Position numbers and translations under genes: made by a program | Shown: positions 4,484-34,188 of the stretch, piece after piece | Layout: the number at the start of each line of letters is the position of its first letter | How positions within the stretch are numbered: position 1 is the first letter of the stretch | The notes under the pieces: generated by a model | What the model was told of the DNA's origin: nothing | Seen by the model: only the letters and a program-made list of their open reading frames with translations | Databases searched by the model: none | Assembly (NCBI GenBank): GCA_963823505.1 | Contig: CAWGLY010000004.1 | Coordinates: forward strand, 68,807 to 132,806 | Length of the DNA: 64,000 bases | DNA from: an uncultured Acidimicrobiia bacterium | Lineage (GTDB): Bacteria > Actinomycetota > Acidimicrobiia > Spongiisociales > UBA5794 | Direction of reading: 5' to 3'

Positions 4484-4547
4484 GATCGGTCGCTCCTGAT
4501 GCGAGGCTGGCGCAACGGTAACGCCTGGAGCGGGATGTGAGACCGAG

Positions 4548-5195
4548 ATGCACGTCATCTGCACGTATGCTCGGGACCATGTGCGGGATGACCGACGGAC
4601 GTGCCCGGATTGCCGTTGTGGCGAGGTAGCGGTGGGATTCACCCGACAGGAGCTCGAGTCATATCGGGACGCTTCAGTTCCTGACCTGGTTGGACCGGGG
4701 CTGCGTTTGCTGTTTGTCGGCATCAACCCGGGGCTGTGGACGGCGGCAACGCAGACGCACTTCGCGCATCCGGGGAACCGGTTCTACCCGGCCCTGCGGC
4801 TCGCCGGGGTCATCGAACGGGACATCGACCGATCGGCAGGCTTCACCGCGGACGACCGGGCCCACCTGATCGAGCGTGGCATTGGCATCACCAATCTCGT
4901 CAATCGGGCGACGGCACGGGCGAGCGAGCTGTCAGCCGAGGAACTGAAGGCAGGGGGGCAGACGTTGCGTGAATTCGTCGCCGAGCATCGACCGGGCGTG
5001 GTCGCCGTTGCCGGCGTGACCGCGTACCGCACCGCGTTCGGACGCCGGACCGCAACGCTGGGCCGGCAGCCGGAGTCGATCCATGGGGCCGAGCTGTGGG
5101 CGGTTCCCAACCCGAGCGGTCTCAACGCCCACGAGACCACCGAGTCCCTGGCTGCGTGGTATCGCCAGGTGGGTGAAGCCGCGGGCATCGTCTGA
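4548..5195 (+). CDS. mug: G/U mismatch-specific uracil-DNA glycosylase (Mug/family 2 UDG)
   Basis: The GINPG active-site motif is present and the uracil-DNA glycosylase fold is conserved along the length. The true start may be an internal GTG. Confidence 0.7.
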   Translation: MHVICTYARDHVRDDRRTCPDCRCGEVAVGFTRQELESYRDASVPDLVGPGLRLLFVGINPGLWTAATQTHFAHPGNRFYPALRLAGVIERDIDRSAGFTADDRAHLIERGIGITNLVNRATARASELSAEELKAGGQTLREFVAEHRPGVVAVAGVTAYRTAFGRRTATLGRQPESIHGAELWAVPNPSGLNAHETTESLAAWYRQVGEAAGIV

Positions 5196-5209
5196 GCGGA
5201 ACCGTCCGC

Positions 5210-5665
5210 TCAGCCGGCTTCGGCGGCAGCCTTGATGTCGTCCAGGTCCTGTTCGATAGCCTTGCGGGTGGACCCCTGGAACATCCTTCCTATTGTGGCT
5301 GCCATGATCTTGCCCATGATCCCGTCGGGCTCGGCGGCGAACGTCATCCCGACTCGGCAGCGGTCCTCGTCCGCAGCTTCGACAGACATCGTCGACACGT
5401 AGTGGGCTCCGCGAGCATCAGCCTCCACCGTGTACGACACGCCCGGTTCGATGTGGGTGACCACCATCTCTTCGGTCGCGGTCTTGCCAGACATGGTGCG
5501 GGTCTCCCGCCACTTGGTACCGACCCCGAACTCGGAGCCCCCGTCGAGGCGCTCGATCTTGTCGATGCCGGACATACGTGCCGCGGCACCATCGAGGTCG
5601 GTGATGATCTCCCACACCTTCGAAGCCGGCGCCCCGACGTTCTTCCGCATTGCCATCTCAGCCAT
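5210..5665 (-). CDS. SRPBCC-family (polyketide cyclase/START-like) protein
   Basis: About 150 aa with START/Bet-v1-like composition (KVWEIITDLDGAA...). The start was chosen at MAEMAMRK. Confidence 0.5.
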   Translation of the reverse strand: MAEMAMRKNVGAPASKVWEIITDLDGAAARMSGIDKIERLDGGSEFGVGTKWRETRTMSGKTATEEMVVTHIEPGVSYTVEADARGAHYVSTMSVEAADEDRCRVGMTFAAEPDGIMGKIMAATIGRMFQGSTRKAIEQDLDDIKAAAEAG

Positions 5666-5825
5666 GTGCCGCTCCTGTGGTCTGGGGTTTGGCCCAGAGA
5701 CTACATGGCGACCATGACGGGTCGGATGGGCAGCCGCTCTCATCGAATGTGATGAGGAGGTCCAGGGTCGGGCGGCTCATTGAGCCCCCGTGGGCGGTTC
5801 CGGGTGTAAGCACCGGCCGATCGGG

Positions 5826-5963
5826 AGTGTCTCACCTATGTCAGCCGGCGAACAGGGATTCGACGACAGACCGGCCCGGTAGGGCCCGGCGAGAGCCGGT
5901 GGGCCAAGGTTTGTGGAGGCGGACAAACGGGGCTCCTGTGGGAGCCCCTCCGCATTTCTGGGA
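5826..5963 (+). repeat. repeated structured element, copy A (candidate ncRNA or REP-like element)
   Basis: The conserved 5' core is gtgtctcacctatgtcagccggcga..ggattcg. The 3' hairpin is ggggctcc-tgtg-ggagcccc, followed by ctccgcatttctgg. It is homologous to the copies at 7556 and 25441. Confidence 0.6.
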
Positions 5964-6187
5964 GGTCTTCACGTCGCACGCTCCTCTTTCGCACGGTCTA
6001 CCGCACTTCGAGGGGGCCCAGGAATCGGGCGATGACACCGGCGTGATCGGGCGAGGTATGGCCACGCGGATGAGCCGCAAGGCTCATCGTGTGTGGACGG
6101 CCTGCCGCGTACCGTGGCGGCATGGGCCGAATCGTTGGAATGGATCGTGGCCGGGAACCCCGTGACGTCGCACGGCGTCCGACCTTC

Positions 6188-7486
6188 ATGAGAGCCAAGG
6201 TACTTCTGGGATTGGCCGCCGTCGTGTTGAGCGCGTGCGGCGGTGGGGCCACTGCGACTCCTGCGCAGCCGGGCGAGCGGGCGACCACGACAGCGTCCGT
6301 AACGCCGACCTCCTCAGCGACAACACAGCCAACGACGGTGCCGGGAGGCACTGCATCCGACCTCGCCCCGCTCAACGAGGCGAGGAGCCGCTGGGCTGCC
6401 GCAAATATGAGCACCTTCAGCTACGTGTTCGAGGACGATTGTGGCGAGTGCATGCCGGTTTCGCAGCAGGTCGTCGTGTGGGACGGCGTTCTCGCTTCAG
6501 GTGGCGAGCCGGTCCCTTCGATCGAGGCGATGTTCGATGCCATAGAGTCTGCGATTGCTGACGGCCAAGCGGTGGACGTCGTGTACGACGACGAGCTCGG
6601 GTTTCCCGTGGACCTGTGGATCGATCGGGAGGCCCGTGCATATGACGGCGGGATCCACTGGCTGATCGAGGGCTTTTCAGGTCGGCTGCCGGGTGACGGC
6701 AGCTCGCTCGACGGGCTCGACGCGGCAGAGGCAAGATGGCAGGCCATGCGGCCCTTGGCGTACTCCTTCCGCACCACCATCATCTGCGACTGCGAGCTCG
6801 ACGGTTGGCTGCGGACCCGGGTCGAGGGCGTCGAGATCGTCGATTGGGAGATGGATCTGACAGTCGGAGACTCAGCGAGCTTTTCCCCACTCACCGTTGA
6901 CGAGCTGCTCGCCGATCTCCGGGAGCTGTTCTCCGCCGGCGTCGAGCAGCAAGGGGTGCGGGTCGGCGGGTCGGCCGAGTACCACCCTGAGCTCGGGTAC
7001 CCCGTGTGGGTCGGCCTCGACATCGAGGTGCTCGACCCCGAGAGCGAACTCGCCGACCTGCCGCCGCGGCTGATCTTCAGTATCGACCAGTTCAACGCAG
7101 AGGAGCCGAGTGGAGATCTTGGTTCCGCGACGAACCTCGATGAATTCCAAGTGGCAAGAGAGCGCTGGGTGGCCACGGGCCTCGTCGACTATCAGTACTC
7201 GCTCACGGTCCACGACATTCTCAGCGGTGACTACAGCGACCCGTACACCGTGATCGTGCTCGATGGCGCCGTGGCGACGGTCACGGCCGCCGACAACACC
7301 ATCGACGATCCGGAGCTGCCTGCCCTGCCGATCAATGACCTCTTCGACCGCATCGAGGTGTGGAGCCAGTCGGGAACACCGGCCGATGTGATCTACCACG
7401 AGGTGCTCGGCTATCCGGTCGTCGTGGTGCGGCGGTCGGGAGATACGCCCCTTGCGTTCTCCATCAGCGACCTCGTCGAGCGCTGA
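6188..7486 (+). CDS. lipoprotein with three internal repeats of an unknown domain
   Basis: Signal peptide plus lipobox (MRAKVLLGLAAVVLSACGG). Three internal repeats carry a D-V-V/I-Y-x-E-L-G-F/Y-P-V motif (DVVYDDELGFPV, EYHPELGYPVWV, DVIYHEVLGYPVVV). Confidence 0.6.
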   Translation: MRAKVLLGLAAVVLSACGGGATATPAQPGERATTTASVTPTSSATTQPTTVPGGTASDLAPLNEARSRWAAANMSTFSYVFEDDCGECMPVSQQVVVWDGVLASGGEPVPSIEAMFDAIESAIADGQAVDVVYDDELGFPVDLWIDREARAYDGGIHWLIEGFSGRLPGDGSSLDGLDAAEARWQAMRPLAYSFRTTIICDCELDGWLRTRVEGVEIVDWEMDLTVGDSASFSPLTVDELLADLRELFSAGVEQQGVRVGGSAEYHPELGYPVWVGLDIEVLDPESELADLPPRLIFSIDQFNAEEPSGDLGSATNLDEFQVARERWVATGLVDYQYSLTVHDILSGDYSDPYTVIVLDGAVATVTAADNTIDDPELPALPINDLFDRIEVWSQSGTPADVIYHEVLGYPVVVVRRSGDTPLAFSISDLVER

Positions 7487-7555
7487 TTCCCGACCCGGGT
7501 CTGGCGCCTCATTTGCGCCGCCACAGCCGGTCGTGGTGTCAGATCGGGCCTGACC

Positions 7556-7668
7556 GTGTGTCGTACCTATGTCAGCAGCGAGTGAGGATTCGGGCAGACG
7601 GCGGGACGAAGGTCTCAGTACCAACGGCGGATGAACGGGGCTCCTACGGGGCCCCCTCCGCATTTCTG
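7556..7668 (+). repeat. repeated structured element, copy B (short variant)
   Basis: Core gtgtcgtacctatgtcagcagcgagtgaggattcg, then the 3' hairpin ggggctcc-tac-ggggcccc (G-U wobble compatible), then ctccgcatttctgg. Confidence 0.6.
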
Positions 7669-7735
7669 GCCCTCCATCTGGGGGGCAGGGCTGGCCCTCC
7701 ATCTGGGGGGCAGGGCTGGCCCTCCATCTACGCGG
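7668..7735 (+). repeat. 25-bp tandem direct repeat, about 2.6 copies (ggccctccatctggggggcagggct)
   Basis: Two perfect units and a partial third lie immediately 3' of element copy B. Confidence 0.7.
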
Positions 7736-7869
7736 CAGGGATCGCCCCCGGTGGGGGCAACACCGCATGCCAGTGACGGCAACACCCAGTAGCCGGACCG
7801 GGACCCCAAGGCGCACACTTGAACTCTCGGGGATGGTTCGCGCCATCCGTAGCTTCCAATGGGGGAACG

Positions 7870-9291
7870 ATGTCCAGCAAGGTAGACCCAGACGTAGACG
7901 TGCTCGTGATCGGTGGAGGCCCGTCCGGATCGACGGTGTCCACACTTCTGGCGCAGCATGGACATCGAGTGAGGGTGTTCGAACGGGCGAAATTCCCTCG
8001 CGAGCATGTTGGAGAATCGCTGCTGCCGTACTGCTTTGGCATCCTCGATGAATTGGGTGTCCTCGAGCAGATGAAGGACCAGGCGGTCCGCAAGCCTGGT
8101 GTGCGGTTCGTCGACGTCGATGGGCGGCATCACACCACCTGGTGCTTCGGTCATGTGATCAAGGATGAGAGTCATCTGTCGTTCCATGTGCGGCGCGACC
8201 GCTTCGACGACATGCTGCTCCGCAACGCCGAGTCTCATGGCGTCGACGTGTTGGAGGAGACCCGAGTGACGGCAGTCGAACTCGACGGTCCCGACGGGCT
8301 GGTCACGGTCACCGCAACCGGGCCTGACGGCGAGGAGCGCATCCACACCGGGAAGTACGTGGTCGACGCCAGTGGGCGGGACACGTTCATCGCCAACCGG
8401 ATGGGCTGGAAGAAGGCCCACGACGAGCTCGACCGAGTCGCCACCTCCACCCACTGGGAGGACGTCGAGTTCAACGGCGGTCTGGAGGAGGGACTGCTCC
8501 AGATCGTCTATTTGGGCGGCGAGAAGAAGGGGTGGATCTGGGTCATCCCCGTCGGCGCCACCCGCGTTTCGATCGGCATCGTCGTGAACAACGACTACTT
8601 CAAGGCGCAACGCAAGGCGCTGCGAGCCGCCGGATCCGAGGACTGGAAGCGGGACTTCTACGTGCAGGAGCTGGAGTCCTCGCCCTTCGTCGGTGAGGTG
8701 ATCGCTACCGGCCACATGGTGGCGGAGCCGGTGGTCAACGGCGACTATTCCTACAAGAGCGAGACGAAGTACGGAGACAACTTCGCCTTGGTCGGTGACG
8801 CGCACACGTTCATCGACCCCATCTTCGCCAGCGGCATCTTCCTGTCGATGAACAGCGCAAGCCTCGTTGCCGGGGCTTTGCACGAGGGTCTGACCACGTC
8901 GCCGGAGACCGGCAGGAAGGCACTCGACGGTGCGTACGAATCGATCGCCGGTGCCTACGGGCTGGTGGAGAAGGCCATCCGGCTGTTCTACGACCCGACC
9001 GCGATCAACTTCGCCCAGGCGGCTTCGGCCGAGGATCTCATCCACGAACGGCACAAGAATGCGCTTGCCAGCATGCACTACCTACTCGCCGGTGACTTCT
9101 TCAACCGCCACGAGGAGTACAGCAAGGTGATCGATCTCCTGGCTGACCCCAGCCTGTTTGCGAAGTACAAGTCGTTCGTGATCGATCGTCACGACGAGGC
9201 CACTTCATCGTGCGGCATGGACCGCGCCCAGGTGTTCAGCGAGTTCCTGCTCCGGGAGAGCGCCGCATCGTCTTCTTCCCCTCCCTCGTAG
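7870..9291 (+). CDS. FAD-dependent oxidoreductase, flavin-dependent halogenase/geranylgeranyl-reductase-like
   Basis: Dinucleotide-binding motif VLVIGGGPSGS near the N-terminus. GDAHTFIDPIFASGI is characteristic of the Trp-halogenase/GG-reductase clade. The long antisense ORF 7615..9078 is rejected. Confidence 0.75.
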   Translation: MSSKVDPDVDVLVIGGGPSGSTVSTLLAQHGHRVRVFERAKFPREHVGESLLPYCFGILDELGVLEQMKDQAVRKPGVRFVDVDGRHHTTWCFGHVIKDESHLSFHVRRDRFDDMLLRNAESHGVDVLEETRVTAVELDGPDGLVTVTATGPDGEERIHTGKYVVDASGRDTFIANRMGWKKAHDELDRVATSTHWEDVEFNGGLEEGLLQIVYLGGEKKGWIWVIPVGATRVSIGIVVNNDYFKAQRKALRAAGSEDWKRDFYVQELESSPFVGEVIATGHMVAEPVVNGDYSYKSETKYGDNFALVGDAHTFIDPIFASGIFLSMNSASLVAGALHEGLTTSPETGRKALDGAYESIAGAYGLVEKAIRLFYDPTAINFAQAASAEDLIHERHKNALASMHYLLAGDFFNRHEEYSKVIDLLADPSLFAKYKSFVIDRHDEATSSCGMDRAQVFSEFLLRESAASSSSPPS

Positions 9292-9416
9292 GCAGAGGTT
9301 CGGCCACGCCGGGGAGCGGTTCTGACCCGCATCGGCAACCAGCCGTGTCGATCGGCTAGCTCCCGCGTCTCGGCGCTTCGGCGTAGGATGCGTTTGGGAC
9401 TCGAGAGGGAGACGTC

Positions 9417-10313
9417 ATGAGGGACCGCCGCGGCACCCGCCGCCTTGGAATCGTGCTGTTGTTCGTTCTGGTCGCATCGATGGTTGCCTCGGTCGCCCAT
9501 GCGGCGCCGGCTGCCGGCGTGCACGAGCAGGACGTCGCCATTGCCGCTGGTGACCACGACATACCGGGCACGCTGACGATGCCGCAGGGCGTGCGCGGTC
9601 CGGTGCCTGCCGTGTTGATGTTGCACGGCTTCGGCAGTTCCAAGGACGAGGTTGGCGACATGTACGCCAGGGTTGCCGAGGACCTTGCAGCGCTCGGTGT
9701 CGCCAGCTTGCGTATCGACTTCGCCGGAGCTTCGGATGCCGCGCAGCCGTGGGTGGACAACACCTACGACGGCATGGTGGCGGACGGCAGAGTTGCCTTG
9801 GATTGGCTGATCGACCTCCGCCGCGTCGACGATGACCGCGTTGGCCTGCTCGGCTTCAGCCTGGGGACCAAAGTGGCGATGTCTGTGGCGGGCACCGATC
9901 CTCGGGTGGCGGCCTTTGCGTCGTGGTCGGGAAGTGCGGCCAACGGGAGTGAGGATTTCCAGTTCTACTTCGACGAGTACTACGACGATGCCCTGGCCAA
10001 CGGTTCGGTGGTGGTCGACCTCGGCTTCACCGTTGTCGAGCTCAGTATCGAATGGTTCGAGACGATCGCGGCCTCGAACAACCTCGATCTCATCGCCGGC
10101 TACGACAACCCGATCCTTGCCATCGCCGGCTCGGACGACGCCACGGTGGACCCTCGCTGGTCGAGGACGCTCATCCATGCCGCAGGCAGCGACGACACGA
10201 CGTTGCGGATCATTCGCGGGGCGGACCACATCTATCACGTGCTCAGTCCCGACCAATCCTTCGCCGAACGGGTGATGAGTCTCACCGCCAAGTGGTTTGC
10301 GTCACGCCTCTGA
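9417..10313 (+). CDS. secreted alpha/beta hydrolase (dienelactone hydrolase/peptidase S9-like)
   Basis: Signal peptide present. The nucleophile elbow is GFSLG, and HGFGSSKDE is present. Alpha/beta-hydrolase length. Confidence 0.7.
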   Translation: MRDRRGTRRLGIVLLFVLVASMVASVAHAAPAAGVHEQDVAIAAGDHDIPGTLTMPQGVRGPVPAVLMLHGFGSSKDEVGDMYARVAEDLAALGVASLRIDFAGASDAAQPWVDNTYDGMVADGRVALDWLIDLRRVDDDRVGLLGFSLGTKVAMSVAGTDPRVAAFASWSGSAANGSEDFQFYFDEYYDDALANGSVVVDLGFTVVELSIEWFETIAASNNLDLIAGYDNPILAIAGSDDATVDPRWSRTLIHAAGSDDTTLRIIRGADHIYHVLSPDQSFAERVMSLTAKWFASRL

Positions 10314-10349
10314 GGTGACGCGTTTTCCGCCGCACGCCTGAGGGCCGTC

Positions 10350-12035
10350 TCAGCGGCCGGTGCGGGCACGGATCCTGCGGAGCTGTCCGATCCTGCAGTC
10401 CACGAGGGTGTCCACCTCGGCGGAGGCGGCCGCATGGCCACTGACGGCTTCGACGAAGGCCTTGCCGTCGAGCTCGTACAGCTCGACGTCGGTGAGGGTG
10501 CGCACTGTGGCGGTGCGTTGCACGTGACGCAAGAGAGCGATTTCGCCGATCACGTCACCGGCACCCAAGGTTGTGACGAGCTGGCCATCGTGGACGACCG
10601 TCACCTCACCCGATTCGACGACGAAAACCGCGTTGCCGGCCGCACCCTCGCTGATGATTTCGGTCCCGGCGACAACAGTGCGCTGAGTGAGGCGCCGGGC
10701 GATGCGCTCGAGCGTGGGCACGGGCAACGCCGAGAACATGGGGCTGCGACGAAGCGTGTCGAGGCGTAGGTCGGGCACGTCGACCATCGCGTCGACCTGT
10801 TGCAGCTTCACGAGCACGGCAAGTCCGGCGACCGCCCCGATGACCCCGGAGCCGATCAGCGCCGCCTGCACGCCGAAGGCAACGACTCCCCACGACGCCA
10901 ACGCGGCGCCCACACCGAGAGCGCCCCAGTAGACACCTTCGAATGCCCCGAGCACCCTCCCCAGCTCGTCTTCCGGCACGGTGCGCTGGACCAGGGTCAT
11001 GGCGGCGATGTCCACCTGCGCTCCGGCGACGCCAATGGTGAAATGGGCGATGAGCACCGCAGCGGACACCGGAAGCAGACCATTCGCCGCCAACCCCAAT
11101 CCGAACACCACCACGCCGAGGGCGAGGTAGCGGCCGAAAGGTCGATTGCGGGCGAGCGACGCCATGGCGATGCTGCCGGCCAAGCCGCCGATGCCGAGCA
11201 CGGCGTTGAGCCAGCCGACACCTGCCTCACCCCAATCGATGAGATCAAAAGCCACCACTACCAGCAGCACTTCGCTGACGCCGACGAGGATCGACTCGAA
11301 CGCCCAAGTGCCGATCACCAACCCGGTGCCTGGGTTGCGCCGTATCGCCTTCAGTCCGTCGGCGAACTCACGCACGAAGGCGTTGGCGGTGCCTCGATCT
11401 GACGGCGGGCGACGATCGCTGTGGAGGTTGCCGGCCAGCCCGGCCGCGCCGAGCAAGACGGTGGCCGACACTACGAACACCCACGACGGCTCGGCAACGA
11501 GCAGGATGGCAGCGGCGGTCGCAGGCCCGATGATCGTGCCCAGGTTCTCGGTAGCGCTGGCCAGCGCGTTGGCCGTCGTGAGGTCGCTTGCGCTGCGAGC
11601 CAGCTCAGGCACGAGCGCGCCGTAGGCGGGGTAGAAGGTGGAGGCTGCGACTGCGTCGAGCGCAGCCAGCACGTACACGATGGTGGCAGCCGAGTCGGCT
11701 GAGATCGTATATGCCAGCGCCGCTGCGGTAGCCGTTCTCGCAAGGAATCCCATGGCGAGCACAGTCGACCGGGAGCGGCGGTCGGTGACCACGGCGACCA
11801 GCGGGCCGGACAGCAGCGCCGGCAAGGTTCGCACCACGGTGATGACTCCGACTCCGGCGGCGCCGCCGATGTCGAAGGCGTACACCGACAACGCGACAAG
11901 CACGGCGTACTCGACGGTGTTGTGGGCAAGGGAGGTGAGCTGGAGGCGGCGCAGGTTGCGATCGGCCACGCCGCTGCGGAGCGACGCGACCCGCAATTTC
12001 AGATGAAATACGATGGACGCCAGGTGGCGGGACAC
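10350..12035 (-). CDS. MFS transporter fused to a C-terminal cyclic-nucleotide-binding (Crp-like cNMP) domain
   Basis: About 12 TM helices (MFS), then GTEIISEGAAGNAVFVVESGEVTV...GAGDVIGEIALL, which is typical of a cNMP-binding beta-barrel. An alternative GTG start lies at 11969. Confidence 0.7.
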   Translation of the reverse strand: MSRHLASIVFHLKLRVASLRSGVADRNLRRLQLTSLAHNTVEYAVLVALSVYAFDIGGAAGVGVITVVRTLPALLSGPLVAVVTDRRSRSTVLAMGFLARTATAAALAYTISADSAATIVYVLAALDAVAASTFYPAYGALVPELARSASDLTTANALASATENLGTIIGPATAAAILLVAEPSWVFVVSATVLLGAAGLAGNLHSDRRPPSDRGTANAFVREFADGLKAIRRNPGTGLVIGTWAFESILVGVSEVLLVVVAFDLIDWGEAGVGWLNAVLGIGGLAGSIAMASLARNRPFGRYLALGVVVFGLGLAANGLLPVSAAVLIAHFTIGVAGAQVDIAAMTLVQRTVPEDELGRVLGAFEGVYWGALGVGAALASWGVVAFGVQAALIGSGVIGAVAGLAVLVKLQQVDAMVDVPDLRLDTLRRSPMFSALPVPTLERIARRLTQRTVVAGTEIISEGAAGNAVFVVESGEVTVVHDGQLVTTLGAGDVIGEIALLRHVQRTATVRTLTDVELYELDGKAFVEAVSGHAAASAEVDTLVDCRIGQLRRIRARTGR

Positions 12036-12143
12036 AGAACTCCCAGGTCCGGCGAGACCTTAGACGCCGGCGTGGTGAACGTTCCGGGCACTCGAATCGA
12101 CCGTGGGCATCCGGCAGAGGTTCACCCCATGGGATCCTCGCCG

Positions 12144-12881
12144 CTACGCACCCACCGCTCGAGCCGCCAACGTGGGATACGGCATCGACGTCGCAATCCC
12201 GAATTCCTGCTCGATGCGACGGCAGTAGTTTCTGTGCTCCAGGAGCGCCTCGGCGTGGCGGCCGTCGGCCTCGAGGGCGATGACGAGCAGTTGGGCAAAT
12301 CGGTCGCGCAATGGGTGGGTGTGCACCAGGTCACGCAGCTTGTCCAGGATGCAACTGGCATCGCTCAGACGGATAGCGGCCTCACACACATCGGCGAGCG
12401 CCGACAGACGCAGCTCTTCCAGCCGCGCCACGGCATGATTGAGGAACTCCGCGTAGTGGAGAGTGCCGAAGGCCGGCCCCCGCCACAAGCCGAGTGCCGC
12501 GTCGAGCGTGCGTCGGGCGCCGGCCGGGTCGTCGCCAAGCTGGATCCGGGCCATTCCCGAGAGCCGCTCGAAGCGGACAACATCGGTCTCTTCCGGATCG
12601 ATCGCAAGCAGGTAGCCGCCCGTGGTGGTTTGCACGGCGTCGGCCACAGCAGGTGCGAGCGCACGGAGCCGACTGACGTAGACGTGAACAGCATGCCCGG
12701 GATCTCTCGGAAGATCGTCTTCCCAGAGCGCTTCGATGATGACGTCGATCGAGACCTCGCGTTGTGGATGGAGAGCGAGCAGGGTGAAGACCGTCCGCAC
12801 CTGCCGCCGATGTATTGCGGTTTCTGTGCCATCCAACTCGAGCCGGATTGGGCCTAGGAGACCGATGTTGATGCCGCTCAT
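12144..12881 (-). CDS. SARP/AfsR-family transcriptional regulator (OmpR-type winged helix plus BTAD)
   Basis: INIGLLGPIRLE...RRQVRTVFTLLALH winged-helix region, followed by a BTAD helical domain. Start at MSGINIG. Confidence 0.75.
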   Translation of the reverse strand: MSGINIGLLGPIRLELDGTETAIHRRQVRTVFTLLALHPQREVSIDVIIEALWEDDLPRDPGHAVHVYVSRLRALAPAVADAVQTTTGGYLLAIDPEETDVVRFERLSGMARIQLGDDPAGARRTLDAALGLWRGPAFGTLHYAEFLNHAVARLEELRLSALADVCEAAIRLSDASCILDKLRDLVHTHPLRDRFAQLLVIALEADGRHAEALLEHRNYCRRIEQEFGIATSMPYPTLAARAVGA

Positions 12882-13009
12882 GTCGTCCCCTCTGAAAGAC
12901 GCTCCAGGTGCCGGGTCCTCGTCAGGATGCCCGGACGCCGTCAACCTACGGGAGCGAGCTTGGAAACGACTTGGAATGGGCGGCGCCTCGTACGACTGCG
13001 GTCGAGGCC

Positions 13010-15673
13010 TCAGCGGTCGTCACCGCAGGCAGGGTCAAACCGGCTTTCGCCCATCACGTTCGGCCAGCTCCGCGACAGGTCCCAACCGTCGAGCCACTCG
13101 CAGAGCCGGTCGGGCCAGAGCGTCCACTGTGAGTCCCACACCACGGCTCCACCGTTGATATCGACGGCGACGAGTTCGCGTCCCTCGTCGGCGAACACCA
13201 TCGCTCGGACCGCCCCCGAATGGCGCATCTCCCCGACCTGACTCCACGTTGCGACTTCCCACAGACGGATGGCGTTGTCCTGGCTACCCGAGGCGAGCGT
13301 AAGCCCGTCCGGCGACACGGCCATGCCTCGGATGGCGTTGGTGTGGGCGCTCCAGTCCCGGACGACCGTGCCGGTACCCGCATCGACGACAGTGATGACT
13401 CCCAGTTCGTCGCCGACCGCGACGAGGCCATCGCCCAGCGCAACCACTGCATTGGCCTCGTTTTCGACGATCGGGACATCGATCGTCTGCGTACGGGTCG
13501 TGAGGTCCCAGACGCGCAGATGCCCGTCGGCGCCGGCGGTGGCGAGGGTCTCATCGTCGAGGAAGGTCGCTGCCTTGAAGCCTTTGCGGTCCTCGACGGG
13601 CAAGCCAAAGGCGGGGTAGAGCGGCTGCAACGTGCGGGGATCTCTGATCACGATCGTGTAGTTGCCGCCAACGCTGACGACCGCTTCGCCACCGGGCGCC
13701 GTTTCGATGTCCCAGACGCCGCCCGGATGATCGGCCAAGAAGCGGACCCCTTCTTCGTCGGCAACTCCCAATTCCCCCTCACTCGTCCCGAAATACGCAG
13801 AACCGGGCTCGAGTCCGCTGGTCACGGAAAAGACGTAATCGTCGAGATCGAACGAACGGCCCTCTCCGCTGCTGCGGTCCCAGTGGTAGATCCCCGCCGC
13901 TCCTCCGATCCACGTTGCTTGATCGGTGACCACAACTGACCGGTAGTCGGCGGCGATGCTGCTGGGTGGCGGTTCGGTTCCGAGATGCAGCCGATAGAGA
14001 CGAACGCGATCGCTCACCGCTGCGACGAGAGAGTCGCCACCGGGAGAAAGGGCATGATGCTGCGTCGCCAGTGCTGTCGTGCTCCCGATGGGTACCGGGT
14101 TCGCCAGGTTGCCTTCGCTGTACGTCCACACCAACACCCCACCGGTACCGGACGAGATGAGTGTCCGACCGTCCGGCGAGAAGGACAGCGATCTCTGCTG
14201 GGCGTCCAGCGGGCCGATCGGCAGTCCGACCGGGGCCAGTGTGCCGGCGTCCCGGACGACGAGGGTCCGGTCTTGGTGCCCGGTGATCACATGATCGTCA
14301 CCTGGTGAGAAGGCCGCGCTCCACACAATCTGCTCCAGGTCCCCGAGGTGGTACGCCAGCAGATCTCCGCTCCTGATGTCCCAGGACGCAATCATCAGGG
14401 GAGAGCCCATCGTCAAGAGCCGCTTCCCATCTCCGCTGACGGCGACACGTCGGATCTCGAGCGTCTCGGCCCGTGTCTCCGACTCGGATAGGGGGATCTC
14501 GTCGAGGGCGTATTCCAGGACCATGGAAGGTCCGCCTGGTCCGACGCTGAACAAGGTCACCGAAGCCGTCGTGGCCACCACCACGGCGTCATCTGGGGCG
14601 ACCACGATGTCGACGATGAGATCGTCGGTGTGCATGATGGGCGTCGCGGCGCGTTGATCGACGTCCCACACCAGGATGTTCCCATCGCTGTCGCCCGTCA
14701 CCAATGAGCCATCGTTCGTGAAGGCGATCGCCGAACCATGACCCGAGAGTGGCAGCTCGCCCAAACGGGCCCCGTCGGCGACATCCAGCAGCACCACCTG
14801 ATTGGCTGCACCGGTCACGGCGGCGACGCCGCGGTCCCAGTCGACGGCAACGTGCCCGGCAGCGGATTCGCCGTCATCACCAACCGCTGCACCCCACACC
14901 TCGCGGCCGTTGACGATCCGGCCGATGGGAATCAAGGCCGTCGGCGACGCCTCGATGGCATGCGACTCTGCCAGCCCTATCGCTGCCCCTTCGGTATCGC
15001 CGATGGTCATGAGGTATTCGGCGTCGCCAACCAGCGCAAGTGCCGCCAGCGAGCGCGCCCGTGTCGCCGATGAGGTCGCAAGGACGGCAAGCACCATGGC
15101 GATGAGCGCGGCCGAAGCGAAGGCTCCCATGATCACGCGGCGGCGGGTGCGGCGGGACCGTGCCTCCTGGTCTCGGTGGGTGATTCCCGCATCGATGAAC
15201 TCGCGCTCTGAGCTGGTCAATGGGAACACTGGTTCTGCGGACCACTCCTCGAACTGCAGGAGCCGCCGGCCGCGGGGGAGCAGGTCGGCGTCGCGGGAGC
15301 CCTTCTCCCACTCGTCGACGGCCGCCGTCAGCCGGCGCTGGATGATCAGAGCCTCGCGTTGTTCCGAGATCCACGTCCTCAGCAGCGACCACTCGCGCAG
15401 CAGCGCCTCGTGAGCGACCTCGACCGTCGGGCCGCGGGACACCGGGTCGCGGTCAAACGTCACCAGCCGGGCTTCCCCGTAGTCGCTCAGCACCCGATCC
15501 AGCCCTTCTCTGTCGAGCCCGAGACTGCGAAGCTCAGACAGGCGGACTCGATGCCGCACGTCGTCGGCGTCATCGGTGACGGACACCAAGCGGAGGAACA
15601 CCTGCCGTGCGACCGCCTGGGTCGGCGCATCGAGACTCGGCGTAGATCTGCGTGGCTCGCTGTTCGACGGCAC
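13010..15673 (-). CDS. C-terminal part of the same giant protein: STAND helical region, transmembrane segment, WD40 beta-propeller repeats
   Basis: It begins, in the adjacent frame, with QAVARQVFLRLVSV, the canonical continuation of nSTAND NTPases. Multiple WD40 repeats end in WD/WS dipeptides (IRLWEV, LRVWDL, ILVWDV). Confidence 0.7.
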   Translation of the reverse strand: MPSNSEPRRSTPSLDAPTQAVARQVFLRLVSVTDDADDVRHRVRLSELRSLGLDREGLDRVLSDYGEARLVTFDRDPVSRGPTVEVAHEALLREWSLLRTWISEQREALIIQRRLTAAVDEWEKGSRDADLLPRGRRLLQFEEWSAEPVFPLTSSEREFIDAGITHRDQEARSRRTRRRVIMGAFASAALIAMVLAVLATSSATRARSLAALALVGDAEYLMTIGDTEGAAIGLAESHAIEASPTALIPIGRIVNGREVWGAAVGDDGESAAGHVAVDWDRGVAAVTGAANQVVLLDVADGARLGELPLSGHGSAIAFTNDGSLVTGDSDGNILVWDVDQRAATPIMHTDDLIVDIVVAPDDAVVVATTASVTLFSVGPGGPSMVLEYALDEIPLSESETRAETLEIRRVAVSGDGKRLLTMGSPLMIASWDIRSGDLLAYHLGDLEQIVWSAAFSPGDDHVITGHQDRTLVVRDAGTLAPVGLPIGPLDAQQRSLSFSPDGRTLISSGTGGVLVWTYSEGNLANPVPIGSTTALATQHHALSPGGDSLVAAVSDRVRLYRLHLGTEPPPSSIAADYRSVVVTDQATWIGGAAGIYHWDRSSGEGRSFDLDDYVFSVTSGLEPGSAYFGTSEGELGVADEEGVRFLADHPGGVWDIETAPGGEAVVSVGGNYTIVIRDPRTLQPLYPAFGLPVEDRKGFKAATFLDDETLATAGADGHLRVWDLTTRTQTIDVPIVENEANAVVALGDGLVAVGDELGVITVVDAGTGTVVRDWSAHTNAIRGMAVSPDGLTLASGSQDNAIRLWEVATWSQVGEMRHSGAVRAMVFADEGRELVAVDINGGAVVWDSQWTLWPDRLCEWLDGWDLSRSWPNVMGESRFDPACGDDR

Positions 15674-18557
15674 CGCGAACTCCGCCGACGCTGTTGTAGG
15701 CGGCGACGGTGATCGAGCCGTCGGTCGATGCTGCTACCAGACCGGCCAGCACGAACTGCATGAGCGGAAGTGCCCCCGGTTGGCCGCGCACGTCGGCCAC
15801 GATACGATCCGCCAGCCCCGGCTCGAGACGAATCCCTGCGGCTTCAGCCGGGCGGACGATGGCCTCGGTGAGCTGGTCGGCGTCGGGCGTTCCGATGGCC
15901 AGGTGCGCATCCCGGACTCGCCCAGACAGCATGTCGTCGACGAGCGGCCGGTCGAAGAAGTCGGCGCGTATCGTTGCGACGACCTCGAGCCGTGACTGTG
16001 GAGCATCCACAGCCTCGACGAGCGCCGCGACGAAAGCCCGGCGAGTGGCTTCGTCGGTGAGCGAATACAACTCCTCGAACTGGTCGATGACGAGCACGAG
16101 ATCGCCGCGGACTCCCTCCACTATGCGTGCGACGAGCCGCGAGAGCCCATCCACATGTGAGCGAAGACTGTCCGCAGCATTCTCCAGCGGCGTCGTCGCG
16201 ACCCGGCCCAGTGCGGTGGCGAGCTCATCGAACGGATGTTTGCCCGGCGTCATCACCACCGAGGTCCAAGTTGCGACGTTCCGGCCATGGTTCGAGGACA
16301 ACGCCGGCAGCAACCCGGCCCGCACCAGAGAGGACTTGCCCGATCCCGACGGTCCGACCACCGTCACGAACCGATGGTGGGCGACGAGGTCGGCGAGCTG
16401 CTGGATCTCGGTGTTCCGTCCGTAGAAGTCGCGGGCGTCCGCGACGTCGAATGCGGCCAGTCCCTTGTACGGGTTGCGTACCGCCACGGCAGCTACCGGG
16501 CCTGGGGAGACCGACAGGTCGCCGGCAGACTGCAGCGCCTCCAGGAACTCGCCAACGGACCCAAAGCGCTCACTCGGGTCTACGGCGCAAGCTCGCCGCA
16601 GCGCGTCGGCCATGCCGTGGGGGAGCTGGTCGGTGCCGGCGGTGTCGGGAAATCGACCCGTCAACAAAGCGACAGCCACCGCTCCGAGTGAGTAGATGTC
16701 GGTGCGCTCGTCGATGGGATCCCCGGAGCGCTCCTCGGGCGCCCGGAACGTGGGGGCCGTGGTCGGAATCTCGGAGACCTGTTTCAGGGTCGGTAGGGCA
16801 ACGCCGAAGTCGGCGACATAGGCATTGCCGTCCGCATCGAGGAGGATGTTGGCCGGTTTGATGTCGCGGTGGATCACCCCCTCCCGGTGGGCGTAGCTGA
16901 GCGCCGAGCCGACCTGAGCCAGCAACGTCATCGCACGCTCGACGGTCATCTCCCGGTCGGTTGCGTCGGCCAGGCTGCCGCCTGCCATGTGGGGCATCAC
17001 GAAGTAGGCCCCTTCGGCGTCACGCCAGAAATCGTGGAGGGAGACGATGTGGGGGTGCTCCAGCCTGGCGACGAGGCGGGCTTCGCTTTCGAACCTGCGC
17101 ACGTACTCGGGGTGGTTGGCGAAGTCGCCACGGATTGCCTTGATGGCGACCTCGCGGCCGACAGACGGCTGGTATGCCCGGTAGACCACGCCGAAGCGGC
17201 CGGCGCCGATCCGTTCTCGCAGCTCGTAGCCGCGGATGGCGTCGCCGGACCCACGTCCCATCTCGGTTGCGGAGGCGTCGGTGCGGAGAGCTGGGAAGTC
17301 GGAGTTCATGCCCTCTGCAACGAGTTGATACGCCGGCAGCGGCGCACCCAGCCCACGAAAGCCATGCTCGCCGAGGTTCAAGATCTGGATGCCGGCCTCG
17401 CTACGCAGTGCGTCCCGGGCCGCCTCAGTCAGGACGATTTGGCCAGGATGACCGGCGGCCATGAACCGCAACGCTCGGAGTAGCGGGGGGCCGTGGAAGT
17501 CACCGGCCTGGGCCTCCACCTCTCCGGCGTCAATCGCCATCCGGACCTCGACGGGCACGAGTCGGTCCCCTTCTGAGTTGAGCCGCCGATGGGCTGCGAC
17601 CGCCACCGTGGCGGCAGATCGCACGTCGGCAAACGCCGCCACGGTGGTGTCGCCGGTCCTGCGAAAGATCCGACCGCCGGCTGCTTCCACTGCGTCGGTG
17701 ATGACCCGGTCGTGAAGCGCCATTGCTTCGCGTACAGCCTCGCTGCGGAGCTCCCAGAGCTCGGCCGGCACCGAGACGTCGACGGCCAGGAACGTCACGT
17801 TCTGGGTCACCACGTCAGACGCACGCAGCAGATCCGGATCGTGGGTCAAGATCCGATGCTCGAGGTCCTGCAGTTCTGGCGAAGGGTCGACGCCGAGTTC
17901 TTCAACGAGCACATCACGGGTCGCCTGATAGGCGCGCAACGCTTCCGCTTGGCGCCCGTCGCGATAGAGGGCGAGCATGTGGCGCGCACGGGACCCTTCG
18001 TTCAGTGGGTGCTCCGCTGCCAGTGCTTCCAACTCGCCGATCACCTCACGGTGCCGGCCGTTGGCGAGATCGGCGTCGATGCGCGCCATCACAGTGGCGA
18101 TCCGCAAGTCCTCGAGTCGGCGCACTTCACCCTCGAGGCCTGGCACGTCGACGAGGTCCGCGTACGGCCGTCCCCGCCACAACGACAAGGCCTCCCGTAG
18201 CCGCTCGGCAGCTGCGGGTGCGTTGGTCGCCACCAGATCACGACCTTCGCTCGCCAGGCTCTCGAAGAGGACAGCATCGATGTCACCAGGCGTGGCCTCG
18301 AGTCGGTAGGTGCCGCCGTTCCGTTCGATACCGCCACCCAACACCGCTCTGAGGTTTGACACGTAGGAGTGGATCGAAGCGCGCACGGCACTCGGTGGCG
18401 ACTCACCCCACACCCCGTCGATGATCTGGTCTGTGGACACGGGTTTGGTGGCGGCGGCGATCAGCATCGCCAACACCGCACGCTGCTTGGGTCCGCCCAG
18501 TGGTGCAGGCGTCCCGTCGGACTCTGCAGCCATCGGCCCCAGCACCAGGAACCTCAT
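15570..18557 (-). CDS. N-terminal part of a giant signalling protein: SARP/BTAD, class III adenylate/guanylate cyclase, Ser/Thr protein kinase, STAND P-loop NTPase (reading frame broken at its 3' end)
   Basis: SARP region: MRFLVLGPMAAESDG...WRGRPYADL. Cyclase domain: VTFLAVDVSVP...RRTGDTTVAAFAD. Kinase motifs: GAGRFGVVYRA, HRDIKPANILL, DFGVA. Walker A: VVGPSGSGKSSLVRAGLLPAL. The ORF ends at a frameshift; see the finding. Confidence 0.75.
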   Translation of the reverse strand: MRFLVLGPMAAESDGTPAPLGGPKQRAVLAMLIAAATKPVSTDQIIDGVWGESPPSAVRASIHSYVSNLRAVLGGGIERNGGTYRLEATPGDIDAVLFESLASEGRDLVATNAPAAAERLREALSLWRGRPYADLVDVPGLEGEVRRLEDLRIATVMARIDADLANGRHREVIGELEALAAEHPLNEGSRARHMLALYRDGRQAEALRAYQATRDVLVEELGVDPSPELQDLEHRILTHDPDLLRASDVVTQNVTFLAVDVSVPAELWELRSEAVREAMALHDRVITDAVEAAGGRIFRRTGDTTVAAFADVRSAATVAVAAHRRLNSEGDRLVPVEVRMAIDAGEVEAQAGDFHGPPLLRALRFMAAGHPGQIVLTEAARDALRSEAGIQILNLGEHGFRGLGAPLPAYQLVAEGMNSDFPALRTDASATEMGRGSGDAIRGYELRERIGAGRFGVVYRAYQPSVGREVAIKAIRGDFANHPEYVRRFESEARLVARLEHPHIVSLHDFWRDAEGAYFVMPHMAGGSLADATDREMTVERAMTLLAQVGSALSYAHREGVIHRDIKPANILLDADGNAYVADFGVALPTLKQVSEIPTTAPTFRAPEERSGDPIDERTDIYSLGAVAVALLTGRFPDTAGTDQLPHGMADALRRACAVDPSERFGSVGEFLEALQSAGDLSVSPGPVAAVAVRNPYKGLAAFDVADARDFYGRNTEIQQLADLVAHHRFVTVVGPSGSGKSSLVRAGLLPALSSNHGRNVATWTSVVMTPGKHPFDELATALGRVATTPLENAADSLRSHVDGLSRLVARIVEGVRGDLVLVIDQFEELYSLTDEATRRAFVAALVEAVDAPQSRLEVVATIRADFFDRPLVDDMLSGRVRDAHLAIGTPDADQLTEAIVRPAEAAGIRLEPGLADRIVADVRGQPGALPLMQFVLAGLVAASTDGSITVAAYNSVGGVRGAVEQRATQIYAESRCADPGGRTAGVPPLGVRHR

Positions 18558-18807
18558 ACGGTCACCCTGAGAGGCTCAGCGGATAGGCGAGCCTCTTGGC
18601 GAGCCGGCCGTTGATGCCGGGGCCTGAGCGGCCCGCCCGAAGGGCAGGAGCGGACAGTATCTCTTCGTCCGGCGAGACGACAGCTTGCCCTATTCACTCG
18701 GCTCCTACGCGGCGGCCGCAATCGACAGTCCTGCACAGCCGACTCCCCTCTGTCACAACTACGACCCTACCGAAGGCGGCTTGAAGAGATCTTGGAACGG
18801 GTCTCGG

Positions 18808-19131
18808 TCAGTACAGGATGTCGAGTGCGTAGCGAAGCGCCCGGTCGACCGCCATCCGTTGGCCCTCATCGAGGCGACCGACGGGAGCGTCGTCGAGCGA
18901 ACTCGCAGGCACCGTGATCACGTTGTCACAATTCACTGCGCACGGTTCTGGGAGGCCTTGATCGGGCCCGATCTCGACCTCGGACCGAATCCCCCTGATC
19001 GTGCGTGTGATCGGAGCACACGTGACCGAGGTCAGCACCGCGATCGCTGCGTTTCGTGTGAGTACACACACAGGCCTTCGACCAGCCGGCGGGCCGAGGT
19101 CAGCCCAGTAGATGTCGTTGCGAGCTACCAC
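18808..19131 (-). CDS. mazF: type II toxin MazF/PemK-family mRNA interferase
   Basis: DIYWADLGPPAGRRPVCVLT is typical of MazF. It overlaps the upstream antitoxin by 7 nt. Confidence 0.75.
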   Translation of the reverse strand: MVARNDIYWADLGPPAGRRPVCVLTRNAAIAVLTSVTCAPITRTIRGIRSEVEIGPDQGLPEPCAVNCDNVITVPASSLDDAPVGRLDEGQRMAVDRALRYALDILY

Positions 19132-19370
19132 TCCGGGGCGGTTCCGGCAGCAAGTCGGCGAGCGGACTCAATCAACGATGGATCGGCTGGTTGGCGCCGG
19201 TAGGCAGCGACCAACTCCTGGTCGGCAGTTGCGAGTTCTTCGGCGCTGATCAATGCCTGGGCGCCTCGGCGGAGCAGCTCCGATCGGTTGGTGCCCAACC
19301 GAGTCGCGAGCGCGTCGAGTTGTTCGACGAGAGCATCGTCCAGCTGCACGAGAACTTGCCGTCTGGCCAT
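19125..19370 (-). CDS. mazE: ribbon-helix-helix antitoxin (MazE/CopG-like)
   Basis: An 81-aa RHH-type protein (MARRQVLVQLDDALVEQLDALA) immediately upstream of and overlapping mazF. Confidence 0.65.
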   Translation of the reverse strand: MARRQVLVQLDDALVEQLDALATRLGTNRSELLRRGAQALISAEELATADQELVAAYRRQPADPSLIESARRLAAGTAPEW

Positions 19371-19371
19371 G

Positions 19372-19391
19372 ACCATATGGTATCACATATG
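19372..19391. promoter_or_regulatory. two adjacent palindromic half-sites CCATATGG / CATATGG at the mazEF start (candidate antitoxin operator)
   Basis: The sequence ccatatggtatcacatatgg lies directly upstream of the mazE start codon. RHH antitoxins autoregulate through such repeats. Confidence 0.5.
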
Positions 19392-19530
19392 GGTTCGGGG
19401 GTTTGGGAGCTGCAAGTGCCGAGACGTCGGTTCTTCTATTTCGTAGACGTATCGCCGGCCAGTGACACGACCTCACTCGCCGGCGCGTGTGCGTAAGGTC
19501 GGTGGAGGGCATCTACTGGGAGGTTGGCGC

Positions 19531-27442: not shown

Positions 27443-27720
27443 CGTCTCGTGCGCATCGTTGTCGATGTCAGGTCTGGGGTTGGTCGAGCGTGGTCATGTT
27501 GGCTCCCTTCAGTGCTTGCCTGCAGCGTGCAACGTGGGGCTGACACCGCGCTGACCTCCCGCTGACAGCGGGCGAAGGGGCCGTCAGCGAGTCCTCAACC
27601 ATCGACCGCGGCCCTGGAGGACCGCGTTGAACGTGGCTCCTGGGCGAACGACCTCCCGGGCAGGCCTCGAGCTCTCGATCCGCGGCGACAGCGCCCGCGA
27701 CGGTGCCCTAGGTTGCGCCT

Positions 27721-34005: not shown

Positions 34006-34188
34006 CGCGTTTCACGCACGATCCGCACGCGACGCGAATCGCCGGCTGCCCACCTCACTCTGGGCGTGAACATGCTCCCTCCGCCTCCTGTTGTCTGCTC
34101 GGTCACTGCACGAGACGTACACCATCGGCGCCGAGATACATCGAATCTCGATGCACCCGGAGCGCAATCCCGCCGGTAGGCTCTCGAC

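Follow-up and report, generated by a model that had tools for sequence, protein, structure and literature searches.

We analysed a 64,000-nucleotide stretch of DNA (the window) from an uncultured Acidimicrobiia bacterium (contig CAWGLY010000004.1), in which three genes on the minus strand encode, in the order of transcription, a giant multidomain signalling protein (13010-18557), a small stand-alone Streptomyces antibiotic regulatory protein (SARP; 12144-12881), and a transporter of the major facilitator superfamily (MFS) with a C-terminal cyclic nucleotide monophosphate (cNMP)-binding domain (10350-12035). The sole supported tie between these genes is a shared promoter motif, which probably points to transcriptional rather than second-messenger coupling. 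Taken as a whole, the locus is best explained, and we hold this with modest confidence, as a cNMP-tuned exporter and a receptor built around a STAND (signal transduction ATPase with numerous domains) NTPase, with genes tied by this SARP box only. A preliminary description of the same DNA had proposed that the giant gene, through a class III adenylate cyclase domain, forms with the transporter a local circuit that signals by cyclic AMP (cAMP). That claim is not supported and should not be carried forward: relatives do not keep the genes adjacent, a frameshift interrupts the giant gene, and the cyclase domain is degenerate in the window copy. Each of the three genes is of a recognisable kind, and it is their adjacency that is lineage-specific.

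A promoter motif shared by the giant gene and the small SARP gene

A scan of three intergenic regions for short repeats found two copies of CTTGGAA at 11-nt spacing upstream of the small SARP gene. In a mismatch search, the second-best site of the window (18780-18797, minus strand) fell between the stop of a MazF-like gene and the start of the giant gene. The two putative boxes are near-identical (TTCCAAG-N4-TTCCAAG versus TTCCAAG-N4-CTTCAAG, with the same 10-nt spacer and TAGGKT) and consist of heptamer direct repeats with an 11-nt period, followed by a -10-like hexamer. The same layout stands upstream of giant-gene homologs at the loci L010 (CCTCAAGttttTCTCAAGccccgtcctgTACGTT) and L093 (CCTTGAGaagcCCTTGAGgtgccgcccaTACCGT). 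Written as the pattern YYYYRAG-N4-YYYYRAG-N10-TANNNT, the box matches exactly twice in the 64 kb, each time on the minus strand, once ahead of the giant gene and once ahead of the small SARP gene, and 100 shuffles gave no match; allowing two mismatches added no further site in the window. L010 and L093 gave one match each, directly upstream of the giant homologs, and the 91 other loci searched gave none. A third homolog locus, L094, which was fetched after the pattern had been fixed, matches without mismatch at 2841-2874 (plus strand), ahead of the homolog start at 2889, and again at 2626-2659 (plus strand).

In SARP target promoters, direct repeats are set 11 or 22 bp apart, and 8 bp separate the 3' repeat from the -10 element (PMC10936776). 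Read as YYRAGNN, the window boxes have an 11-bp period and lie 8 nt from TAGGKT, which fits this architecture, and the same is true of the boxes at L010, L093 and L094. Judged by sequence, both putative boxes in the window therefore have the layout of a SARP-dependent promoter. A box lies upstream of both the giant gene and the small SARP gene, so any coupling between the two is probably at the level of transcription, and because the box is kept upstream of giant genes that lack a small SARP gene on their short contigs, the simplest reading is that the SARP domain of the giant protein would act as an autoregulator. At L094, a third box with one mismatch (2118-2151, minus strand) faces a divergent gene of 311 aa without a Pfam family (1103-2038). 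Boxes at this locus thus stand upstream of the homolog P0145 and also face the divergent gene, which suggests that the regulon of the giant family takes in variable neighbouring genes.

Three further observations concern these regions. A tRNA-like sequence can be seen by eye between the boxes of L094, at about 2230-2305. In the window, a repeat of GGCGAGCC (two copies at 12-nt spacing, 18586-18605) was set aside for its lack of conservation and its unsuitable period. Directly ahead of the giant gene is a type II toxin-antitoxin pair (18808-19376, minus strand), and the box of the giant gene starts 11 nt past the toxin stop.

The small SARP matches the BTAD profile (E = 2.8e-30, 106 bits against a cut-off of 22.1) and, at the borderline, Trans_reg_C (26.7 bits against 26.2), which bears out the earlier call of a stand-alone SARP at this position; the NCBIfam AfsR and BagI/FevR models also match its SARP region. 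A Shine-Dalgarno-like GAGGGGA occurs just upstream of its ATG at 12881. Its SARP domain is 30% identical to that of the giant gene and 35% identical to that of an AfsR-like gene elsewhere in the window, and we therefore do not regard the small SARP as a recent local duplicate; the specific candidate, a recent copy of the giant gene's SARP domain, was ruled out by the 30% identity. The small SARP gene separates the other two, so the earlier statement that the transporter gene immediately follows the giant gene needs correction. The spacer that follows the small SARP gene contains neither a terminator-like site nor a SARP box, its RNA folds no better than shuffled sequence (z = 0.53), and its only repeat, a 7-nt inverted pair 39 nt apart, was dismissed. 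A promoter and terminator scan of 10000-19500 found no sigma-70 consensus promoter. It called terminator-like sites at two places, within the coding sequence of the MFS gene and, on the plus strand, near 19420, and none between the three genes. Rfam recognised no RNA family in the whole window.

The transporter, the giant gene and its cyclase-homology domain

Pfam profiles matched the 561-aa transporter as MFS_1 (PF07690; E = 7e-34, 117.7 bits against a cut-off of 33.4, residues 40-366), MFS_3 (PF05977; E = 2.5e-13, 49.8 bits against 27) and cNMP_binding (PF00027; E = 1.6e-18, 66.9 bits against 27.5, residues 452-531). The PF00027 search was the check that the preliminary description had set beforehand for its call of an MFS permease with a C-terminal cNMP-binding domain, and the protein passes it clearly. 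Its phosphate-binding cassette is complete (G497-E498...R507-T508-A509, reading GEIALLRHVQRTATV), and G497, E498, R507 and A509 are invariant in an alignment of 38 MFS-cNMP fusion homologs; in our reading, the RTA motif does not tell cAMP from cGMP. An AlphaFold2 model built on the same alignment (mean pLDDT 90.7, pTM 0.88) shows a helical membrane bundle (residues 1-418 nearly all helix), followed by a beta-roll and a long C-helix. When this model was compared with solved structures by Foldseek, the membrane part resembled MFS proteins of the drug/H+-antiporter type (MdfA, VMAT1/2 and NorA; TM-score normalised to the target of about 0.8), and the tail resembled cAMP-binding domains, including the regulatory subunit of protein kinase A (PKA; rmsd 1.7 A over 122 residues, 31% identity), GlxR and the cNMP-binding domain of PycTIR. 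No solved chain in the PDB spanned both parts. The profile matches and the modelled 12-helix, two-bundle fold together place the product in the MFS superfamily. The fusion had been described as uncommon, which does not hold: a metagenome scan gave at least 590 confirmed matches, and such proteins are already noted in the literature. The fusion is common and already recognised, and the transporter is a member of a known but unstudied kind.

The giant gene is present as two long open reading frames (ORFs; 15570-18557 and 13010-15673, minus strand). We regard them as halves of one gene because the nSTAND1 profile is split between them (positions 1-270 in the upstream ORF, 277 bits; positions 270-378 in the downstream ORF, 90 bits) and because five intact homologs of 1872-2110 aa (P0132, P0134, P0139, P0143 and P0145) are colinear across the junction. 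Read together, the halves cover the nSTAND1 profile over its full length, Walker A motif included, with the match interrupted by the frameshift. The letters at the junction are GAG T CTC GAT, and removal of the T gives ...QIYAELDAPTQAV... No homopolymer or slippery heptamer occurs at the junction, the 887 codons past it stay open with a coding-like G+C content at third codon positions (GC3) of 0.78, and no split domain was found in ten other ORFs of the window; from these three observations we infer either a very recent mutation or decay, or an isolated base-call error. Programmed frameshifting was ruled out by the lack of a slippery sequence, and assembly-wide indel errors received no support from the ten other ORFs, none of which has split domains.

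To place the cyclase-homology domain, 1.84 billion representatives were searched, which returned 21,928 relatives, and the best 150 listed were used. Among these best 150 are 22 proteins of more than 1,700 aa, with the domain mostly at residues ~250-450. Five of these giants were scanned, and all five have the architecture of the window gene, four of them (P0132, P0134, P0143 and P0145) with a PF00211 match. A Kyte-Doolittle scan of the 22 found a hydrophobic segment after the NTPase (residues 900-1200), comparable to the predicted helix of the window protein, in 20. Residues 240-433 of the window protein gave no PF00211 match even at E<=10, and nothing relevant was returned by Pfam. The homology to solved catalytic domains is nevertheless clear from phmmer searches of the PDB, which matched the class III cyclases 3mr7 (1.2e-9), Ma1120 (2e-9) and LipJ (1ybt; 1e-4), and the NCBIfam LipJ model matches the same region at 2.4e-8.

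We compared the catalytic columns of the window copy with those of 149 homologs and two solved cyclases. The window copy keeps both metal-binding Asp residues, the substrate Asp and the Arg, and has Arg at the Lys column and Leu at the column of the transition-state Asn. This Leu is found in the window copy only (0 of the 149 other homologs among those listed), and in place of the D-[IL]-E-[GD]-S-T motif that follows the first metal Asp the window reads DVSVPA. Class III cyclases that lose the transition-state Asn turn over 10- to 100-fold more slowly. The window copy is probably not active as a cyclase enzyme. Thus the earlier call of a class III cyclase domain in the giant gene stands by homology to solved catalytic domains, but neither the PF00211 match nor the catalytic residue set is present. 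Across the 22 giants, the Lys is kept in 16, the second metal Asp in 16, the Asn in 18 and the Arg in all 22, and about a quarter of the family deviates at one or more catalytic positions. From these deviations, we suggest that the domain may often have a non-catalytic role in the giant family, such as dimerisation.

Table 1. Features of the window, with positions counted from its first letter.
Feature	Position	Strand	Evidence
DUF6174 gene	6074-7486	+	
FAD-dependent halogenase/monooxygenase-like gene	7819-9291	convergent with MFS gene	
Alpha/beta-hydrolase gene	9417-10313		
MFS (DHA/MFS_3-type) transporter with C-terminal cyclic-nucleotide-binding domain, 561 aa	10350..12035	-	Pfam, AlphaFold2, Foldseek
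cNMP-binding domain, residues 452-531, intact phosphate-binding cassette GEIALLRHVQRTATV	10443..10682	-	PF00027 and alignment
Spacer of 108 nt, small SARP stop to MFS start, with TAAGGT hexamer (-10-like by eye)	12036..12143	-	
Stand-alone small SARP regulator (winged-helix Trans_reg_C and BTAD), 245 aa	12144..12881	-	Pfam
Putative SARP-box promoter of small SARP, TTCCAAGtcgtTTCCAAGctcgctcccgTAGGTT, 61 nt before ATG	12943..12976	-	repeat scan and pattern search
Giant multidomain STAND signalling gene, ~1849 codons, one +1 frameshift	13010..18557	-	Pfam, homolog alignment
WD40 beta-propeller region	13124..14827	-	WD40 4.8e-29 and many beta-propeller families
Single hydrophobic helix between nSTAND1 and WD40, predicted membrane-spanning	15065..15139	-	Kyte-Doolittle scan
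nSTAND1 NTPase, Walker A GPSGSGKSS, frameshift-split	15287..16472	-	Pfam
Frameshift junction, frame -3 to -1	15634..15639	-	homolog alignment
Ser/Thr protein kinase domain, residues 444-639	16641..17228	-	Pkinase 2.4e-43; VAIK, HRDIKPAN and DFG present
Class III cyclase-homology domain, residues ~257-432, degenerate	17262..17789	-	phmmer, alignment
SARP module (Trans_reg_C and BTAD), residues 1-249	17811..18557	-	BTAD 7.3e-44
Putative SARP-box promoter of giant gene, TTCCAAGatctCTTCAAGccgccttcggTAGGGT, 206 nt before ATG	18764..18797	-	mismatch search and pattern search
PemK/MazF toxin, overlaps antitoxin	18808-19131	-	4.3e-14
RHH/CopG antitoxin	19125-19376	-	RHH_1 8.5e-8
AfsR-like large SARP, 1056 aa: Trans_reg_C, BTAD, P-loop NTPase (AAA_22, NB-ARC, weak nSTAND1), TPR	27712-30882	+	Pfam

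Genomic neighbourhoods and competing explanations

The best 80 of the at least 590 metagenome relatives of the transporter were kept, and neighbour counts cover 87 MFS-cNMP loci (88 in the clustering of flanks). The closest homologs come from metagenome-assembled genomes (MAGs) of Acidimicrobiia, and a five-sequence alignment used as seed found two genome loci, both from Acidimicrobiia MAGs. Neighbourhoods of the three closest relatives (L001, L005 and L004, at 62%, 61% and 56% identity) are unrelated to the window's: no cyclase, SARP or STAND gene was found within 10 kb on either side at L001 or on the 15.8-kb contig of L005, and L004 has a 386-aa cyclase gene 5.4 kb off. When segments of the window were searched against six-frame ORFs of the 87 loci, kinase, nSTAND1 and WD40 neighbours were found at none and a SARP neighbour at one (L026). 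Of the neighbours in the window, only the DUF6174 gene recurs near the transporter gene of a close relative (L005, 9506-10780, minus strand; 49% identity between the two); it is convergent with the MFS-cNMP gene in both, abutting it in L005 and lying 2.9 kb away in the window, where the hydrolase and FAD-enzyme genes lie between. Around the giant homologs at L010 (P0132, 61% identical over 980 aa), L093 (P0134) and L094 (P0145), no MFS-cNMP or small SARP gene was found on contigs that are short (5.8-11.6 kb, with the giant homolog alone at L093), and the neighbours on these short contigs are unrelated to those of the window.

One explanation of the arrangement in the window is coincidence, in which the three genes are functionally unrelated, related SARP domains recognise similar repeats, and the small SARP and the giant protein would autoregulate separately. 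The closest relatives' neighbourhoods are wholly different from the window's, the only synteny with a close relative is on the MFS gene's other side, and the region also holds the mazEF-like pair, varied metabolic genes and a third SARP gene ~15 kb away, all of which is in keeping with a chance arrangement. However, the two SARP domains are only 30% identical yet their boxes are near-identical, and the absence of any other box from the 64 kb, even with two mismatches, also argues against independent autoregulation. We consider coincidence unlikely.

We also investigated whether cyclase genes accompany the transporter family, as would be expected if the giant protein's cyclase made local cAMP on activation and this cAMP directly gated the MFS-cNMP transporter in a dedicated circuit. 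The arrangement in the window invites this reading, with a cyclase-homology domain and an intact cNMP pocket 1 kb apart on the same strand and a shared SARP box that suggests co-regulation of the genes; furthermore, most members of the giant family keep all canonical catalytic residues (Asn 18/22, Arg 22/22, Lys 16/22). A hidden Markov model built from the 150 cyclase-domain sequences was run on six-frame ORFs of all loci, and the domain was found in 7 of 87, with an eighth (L008) that runs off the locus end. The conserved synteny with cyclase-domain genes that had been anticipated is thus lacking, since close relatives have unrelated neighbours and 8 of 87 loci have cyclase homology within 10 kb. 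Four more distant loci on long contigs divide evenly, with a cyclase in L008 and L009 and none in L011 and L012, and a cyclase gene lies 0-5 kb downstream of the transporter gene in the distant loci L009, L027, L039, L045, L047 and L075. Per Mb of available flank, there are 15.7 cyclase domains at 0-2 kb, 21.3 at 2-5 kb and 4.2 at 5-10 kb. This corresponds to 9 events within 5 kb versus 1 (2 with L008) at 5-10 kb, or 18/Mb versus 4-8/Mb, with p ~0.11 to 0.25 by a binomial estimate. By these p values the enrichment falls short of significance, and since the loci include several relatives of one another, it is suggestive at most.

The remaining evidence runs against the dedicated circuit. The window cyclase has lost the catalytic Asn to Leu, the Lys to Arg and the D-x-E-G/D-S-T motif, has no PF00211 match, and lies in a frameshifted gene. 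A giant-type neighbour is found in 0 of 87 MFS-cNMP loci and an MFS-cNMP gene in 0 of 3 giant-homolog loci, and the cyclase enrichment near MFS-cNMP genes does not reach significance. In addition, cAMP is diffusible, as textbooks have it, so that signalling needs no adjacency. We therefore give a dedicated circuit little credence.

Members of the main metagenome clade share 35-38% identity with the window protein, and there the transporter gene stands last in a conserved co-directional cassette of a sigma-70/ECF-type factor, Frankia_peptide (PF14407), FTCD_C, Peptidase_S8, GAF and MFS-cNMP genes (examples among L013-L092 are L056, at about 3400-11659, L086, L013 and L015). Clustering of flanking ORFs across the 88 loci counted S8 protease neighbours at 52, GAF at 22 and sigma factor at 21, and a LipJ-like hydrolase-cyclase gene sometimes follows the cassette. 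PF14407 is one of the precursor families of ribosomally synthesised and post-translationally modified peptides (RiPPs) that were defined in 2009 (PMC8939145; PMC12353581). By its gene content, the cassette looks like a RiPP-like peptide export unit with two cyclic-nucleotide-type sensor domains, and we found no description in the literature of a sigma/Frankia_peptide/S8/GAF/MFS-cNMP cassette. RiPP-like cassette genes are absent from the 10 kb around the window's MFS gene. Conservation of the cassette therefore suggests that peptide export is the likely ancestral role of the MFS-cNMP family and that the window context is atypical. Many loci of the transporter family also contain a second MFS-cNMP copy or fragment beside the first (L008, at 12272-12932, L024, L037, L041, L043, L049, L054 and L085). 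In some tblastn matches, 543 residues are spread over ~2.0-2.1 kb, suggestive of tandem paralogs, of insertions or of frameshifted copies.

In another reading, the small SARP would be the pathway-specific activator, and the transporter the export pump, of a small secondary-metabolite locus that includes the genes at 6074-10313. It is well established that SARPs commonly activate the gene clusters in which they lie and that export is a usual task of MFS pumps (see also PMC10936776), genes for tailoring-type enzymes adjoin (the FAD-dependent halogenase/monooxygenase-like gene at 7819-9291 and the alpha/beta-hydrolase gene at 9417-10313), the transporter weakly resembles EntS and ryptide exporters in NCBIfam, and its relatives in the main metagenome clade end the RiPP-like cassette. 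No polyketide synthase, nonribosomal peptide synthetase or RiPP maturase was found among the nearby ORFs scanned, however, no SARP box precedes the DUF6174, FAD-enzyme or hydrolase genes, and the hydrolase and FAD-enzyme genes are missing from L005, where DUF6174 abuts the MFS gene. A metabolite locus of this kind appears to us quite improbable.

A broader proposal would join expression to activity. In it, one sensor, the five-module receptor with its predicted membrane anchor, would act through the one conserved SARP box to turn on its own gene together with an operon of the small SARP and the cNMP-gated exporter, and family members with an intact cyclase would also make the cyclic nucleotide that opens the exporter, the window copy having recently decayed. 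Expression and activity of a transporter would then both depend on a single sensor, which would amount to a coherent feed-forward loop; we think it very doubtful that this is the case. Least credible of all is an anti-phage module of the Pycsar kind, with an infection-triggered cyclase and a membrane cNMP-binding effector, which we reject because the PADLOC matches that favour it (PycTIR and Pycsar-effector models to the cNMP domain at 1e-12 to 1e-9, PD-T4-6 and mad6 models to the kinase, beside an adjoining toxin-antitoxin pair) are to single generic domains only; moreover, a full 12-helix MFS transporter would stand in for the short TM or TIR effector, the cyclase forms part of a giant multidomain gene that the small SARP gene separates from the transporter gene, whereas Pycsar is a two-gene cyclase-effector operon, and the MFS-cNMP family occurs mostly in the sigma/peptide/protease cassette.

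We thus return to a cNMP-tuned exporter and a STAND receptor whose genes are tied by the SARP box. In this explanation, the MFS-cNMP protein would be a drug/H+-antiporter-like exporter whose cytoplasmic C-terminal domain draws its ligand, cAMP or cGMP, from the cell's general pool, and binding would tune transport allosterically, by analogy with the post-translational gating proposed for other C-terminal regulatory domains of MFS proteins. The giant protein would be a STAND receptor in which the WD40 propellers sense a signal and bring about oligomerisation of nSTAND1, which in turn would activate the kinase and set SARP domains side by side on DNA. Its SARP domain would autoactivate its own promoter and, in this genome, also drive the small SARP gene, and read-through might extend to the MFS-cNMP gene 108 nt downstream, given that no terminator and no significant RNA structure lie between them. 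The domains, the frameshift, the residue changes, the absence of conserved synteny and the position and specificity of the motif are observed; ligand gating, the identity of the box binder, co-transcription and membrane topology are inferred steps of this scheme, and the SARP-box link between the genes is credible but unproven.

Several points weigh against this explanation. The box pattern was hand-built from four of the sites, so that L094 is its sole prospective test, and the box of the giant gene, 206 nt from the ATG, is farther away than in the homologs. The small SARP could equally be the box binder, and the MFS gene has no box and a TAAGGT hexamer of its own. The predicted helix is called from a hydropathy scan only, and the WD40 region would be extracytoplasmic if the helix spans the membrane. 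The greater density of cyclases within 5 kb of MFS-cNMP genes may reflect a loose cyclase association in some clades. Finally, we know of no experiment that shows cNMP binding or gating for any MFS-cNMP fusion.

Other genes of the window and comparison with known systems

Elsewhere in the window, the SARP domain of the AfsR-like gene is 43% identical to that of the giant gene, and no TTCCAAG-type SARP box was found upstream of it. At 32257-34011 (minus strand), a gene for 584 aa joins a CHAT (caspase-like protease) domain to a VWA domain, a combination typical of conflict or signalling systems, and an 814-aa ORF at 2339-4783 (minus strand) has a coding-like GC3 of 0.76 and no Pfam family at E<=0.001.

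Our analysis bears on known systems in three respects. The confident structural model and the invariant ligand pocket would make the MFS-cNMP family tractable for the study of direct second-messenger gating of a secondary transporter. The giant gene defines a recurrent family of ~1,900-aa receptors that combine SARP, cyclase, kinase, STAND NTPase, a predicted membrane helix and WD40. The conserved SARP box upstream of this family predicts autoregulation, and it offers a testable cis-element for large-SARP signalling outside Streptomyces.

The giant protein is most readily compared with AfsR, the large SARP of S. coelicolor with the order SARP-NOD-TPR (PMC10936776), with which it shares an N-terminal SARP domain, a STAND NTPase and a repeat sensor. 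The target promoters of AfsR (PMC10936776) agree with the window boxes in the 11-bp period of their direct repeats and in the 8 bp between the 3' repeat and the -10 element, and Ser/Thr phosphorylation is regulatory in AfsR, to which the giant gene with its own kinase may be likened. Unlike AfsR, the giant gene has a cyclase-homology domain and a kinase inserted between SARP and NTPase, nSTAND1 rather than NB-ARC, a predicted membrane helix, WD40 rather than TPR repeats, and ~1850 rather than 993 aa. The NCBIfam TOMM kinase/cyclase fusion TIGR03903 also combines a cyclase-homology domain, a P-loop NTPase and a kinase, but domain order and partners differ, and the kinase-region match is 114.7 bits against a cut-off of 705. 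Cyclase-ATPase-HTH proteins of the Rv0386 type are a further example of class III cyclase-ATPase fusions. Class III cyclase domains are expected to act as dimers, in line with activation driven by oligomerisation; the giant gene's domain lacks the catalytic Asn and Lys, in contrast to class III cyclase-STAND/AAA fusions.

For the transporter, Rv3239c and Rv3728 of M. tuberculosis are annotated as MFS proteins with cNMP-binding domains. We found no characterised MFS-cNMP member in the literature, and to our knowledge none has experimental data. MFS transporters with C-terminal regulatory domains, cNMP-binding ones among them, figure in the survey of Willson et al. (2019), as cited in a review (PMC10710835), and of the UspA fusions that review says that none has been characterised for transporter regulation. 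Like the surveyed fusions, the window protein has a 12-helix core and a cytoplasmic cNMP-binding domain, with presumed allosteric post-translational control; it is set apart from other MFS fusions by its MFS_3/EntS-like clade, its length of ~550 aa and the lack of further domains. With cyclic-nucleotide-gated channels, GlxR and the PKA regulatory subunit, it shares the beta-roll, the G-E...R-T-A cassette and the C-terminal helix. Unlike the channels, CRP-type regulators and PKA sensors, however, it couples this sensor to a secondary transporter as its predicted output, rather than to a channel pore or a DNA-binding domain.

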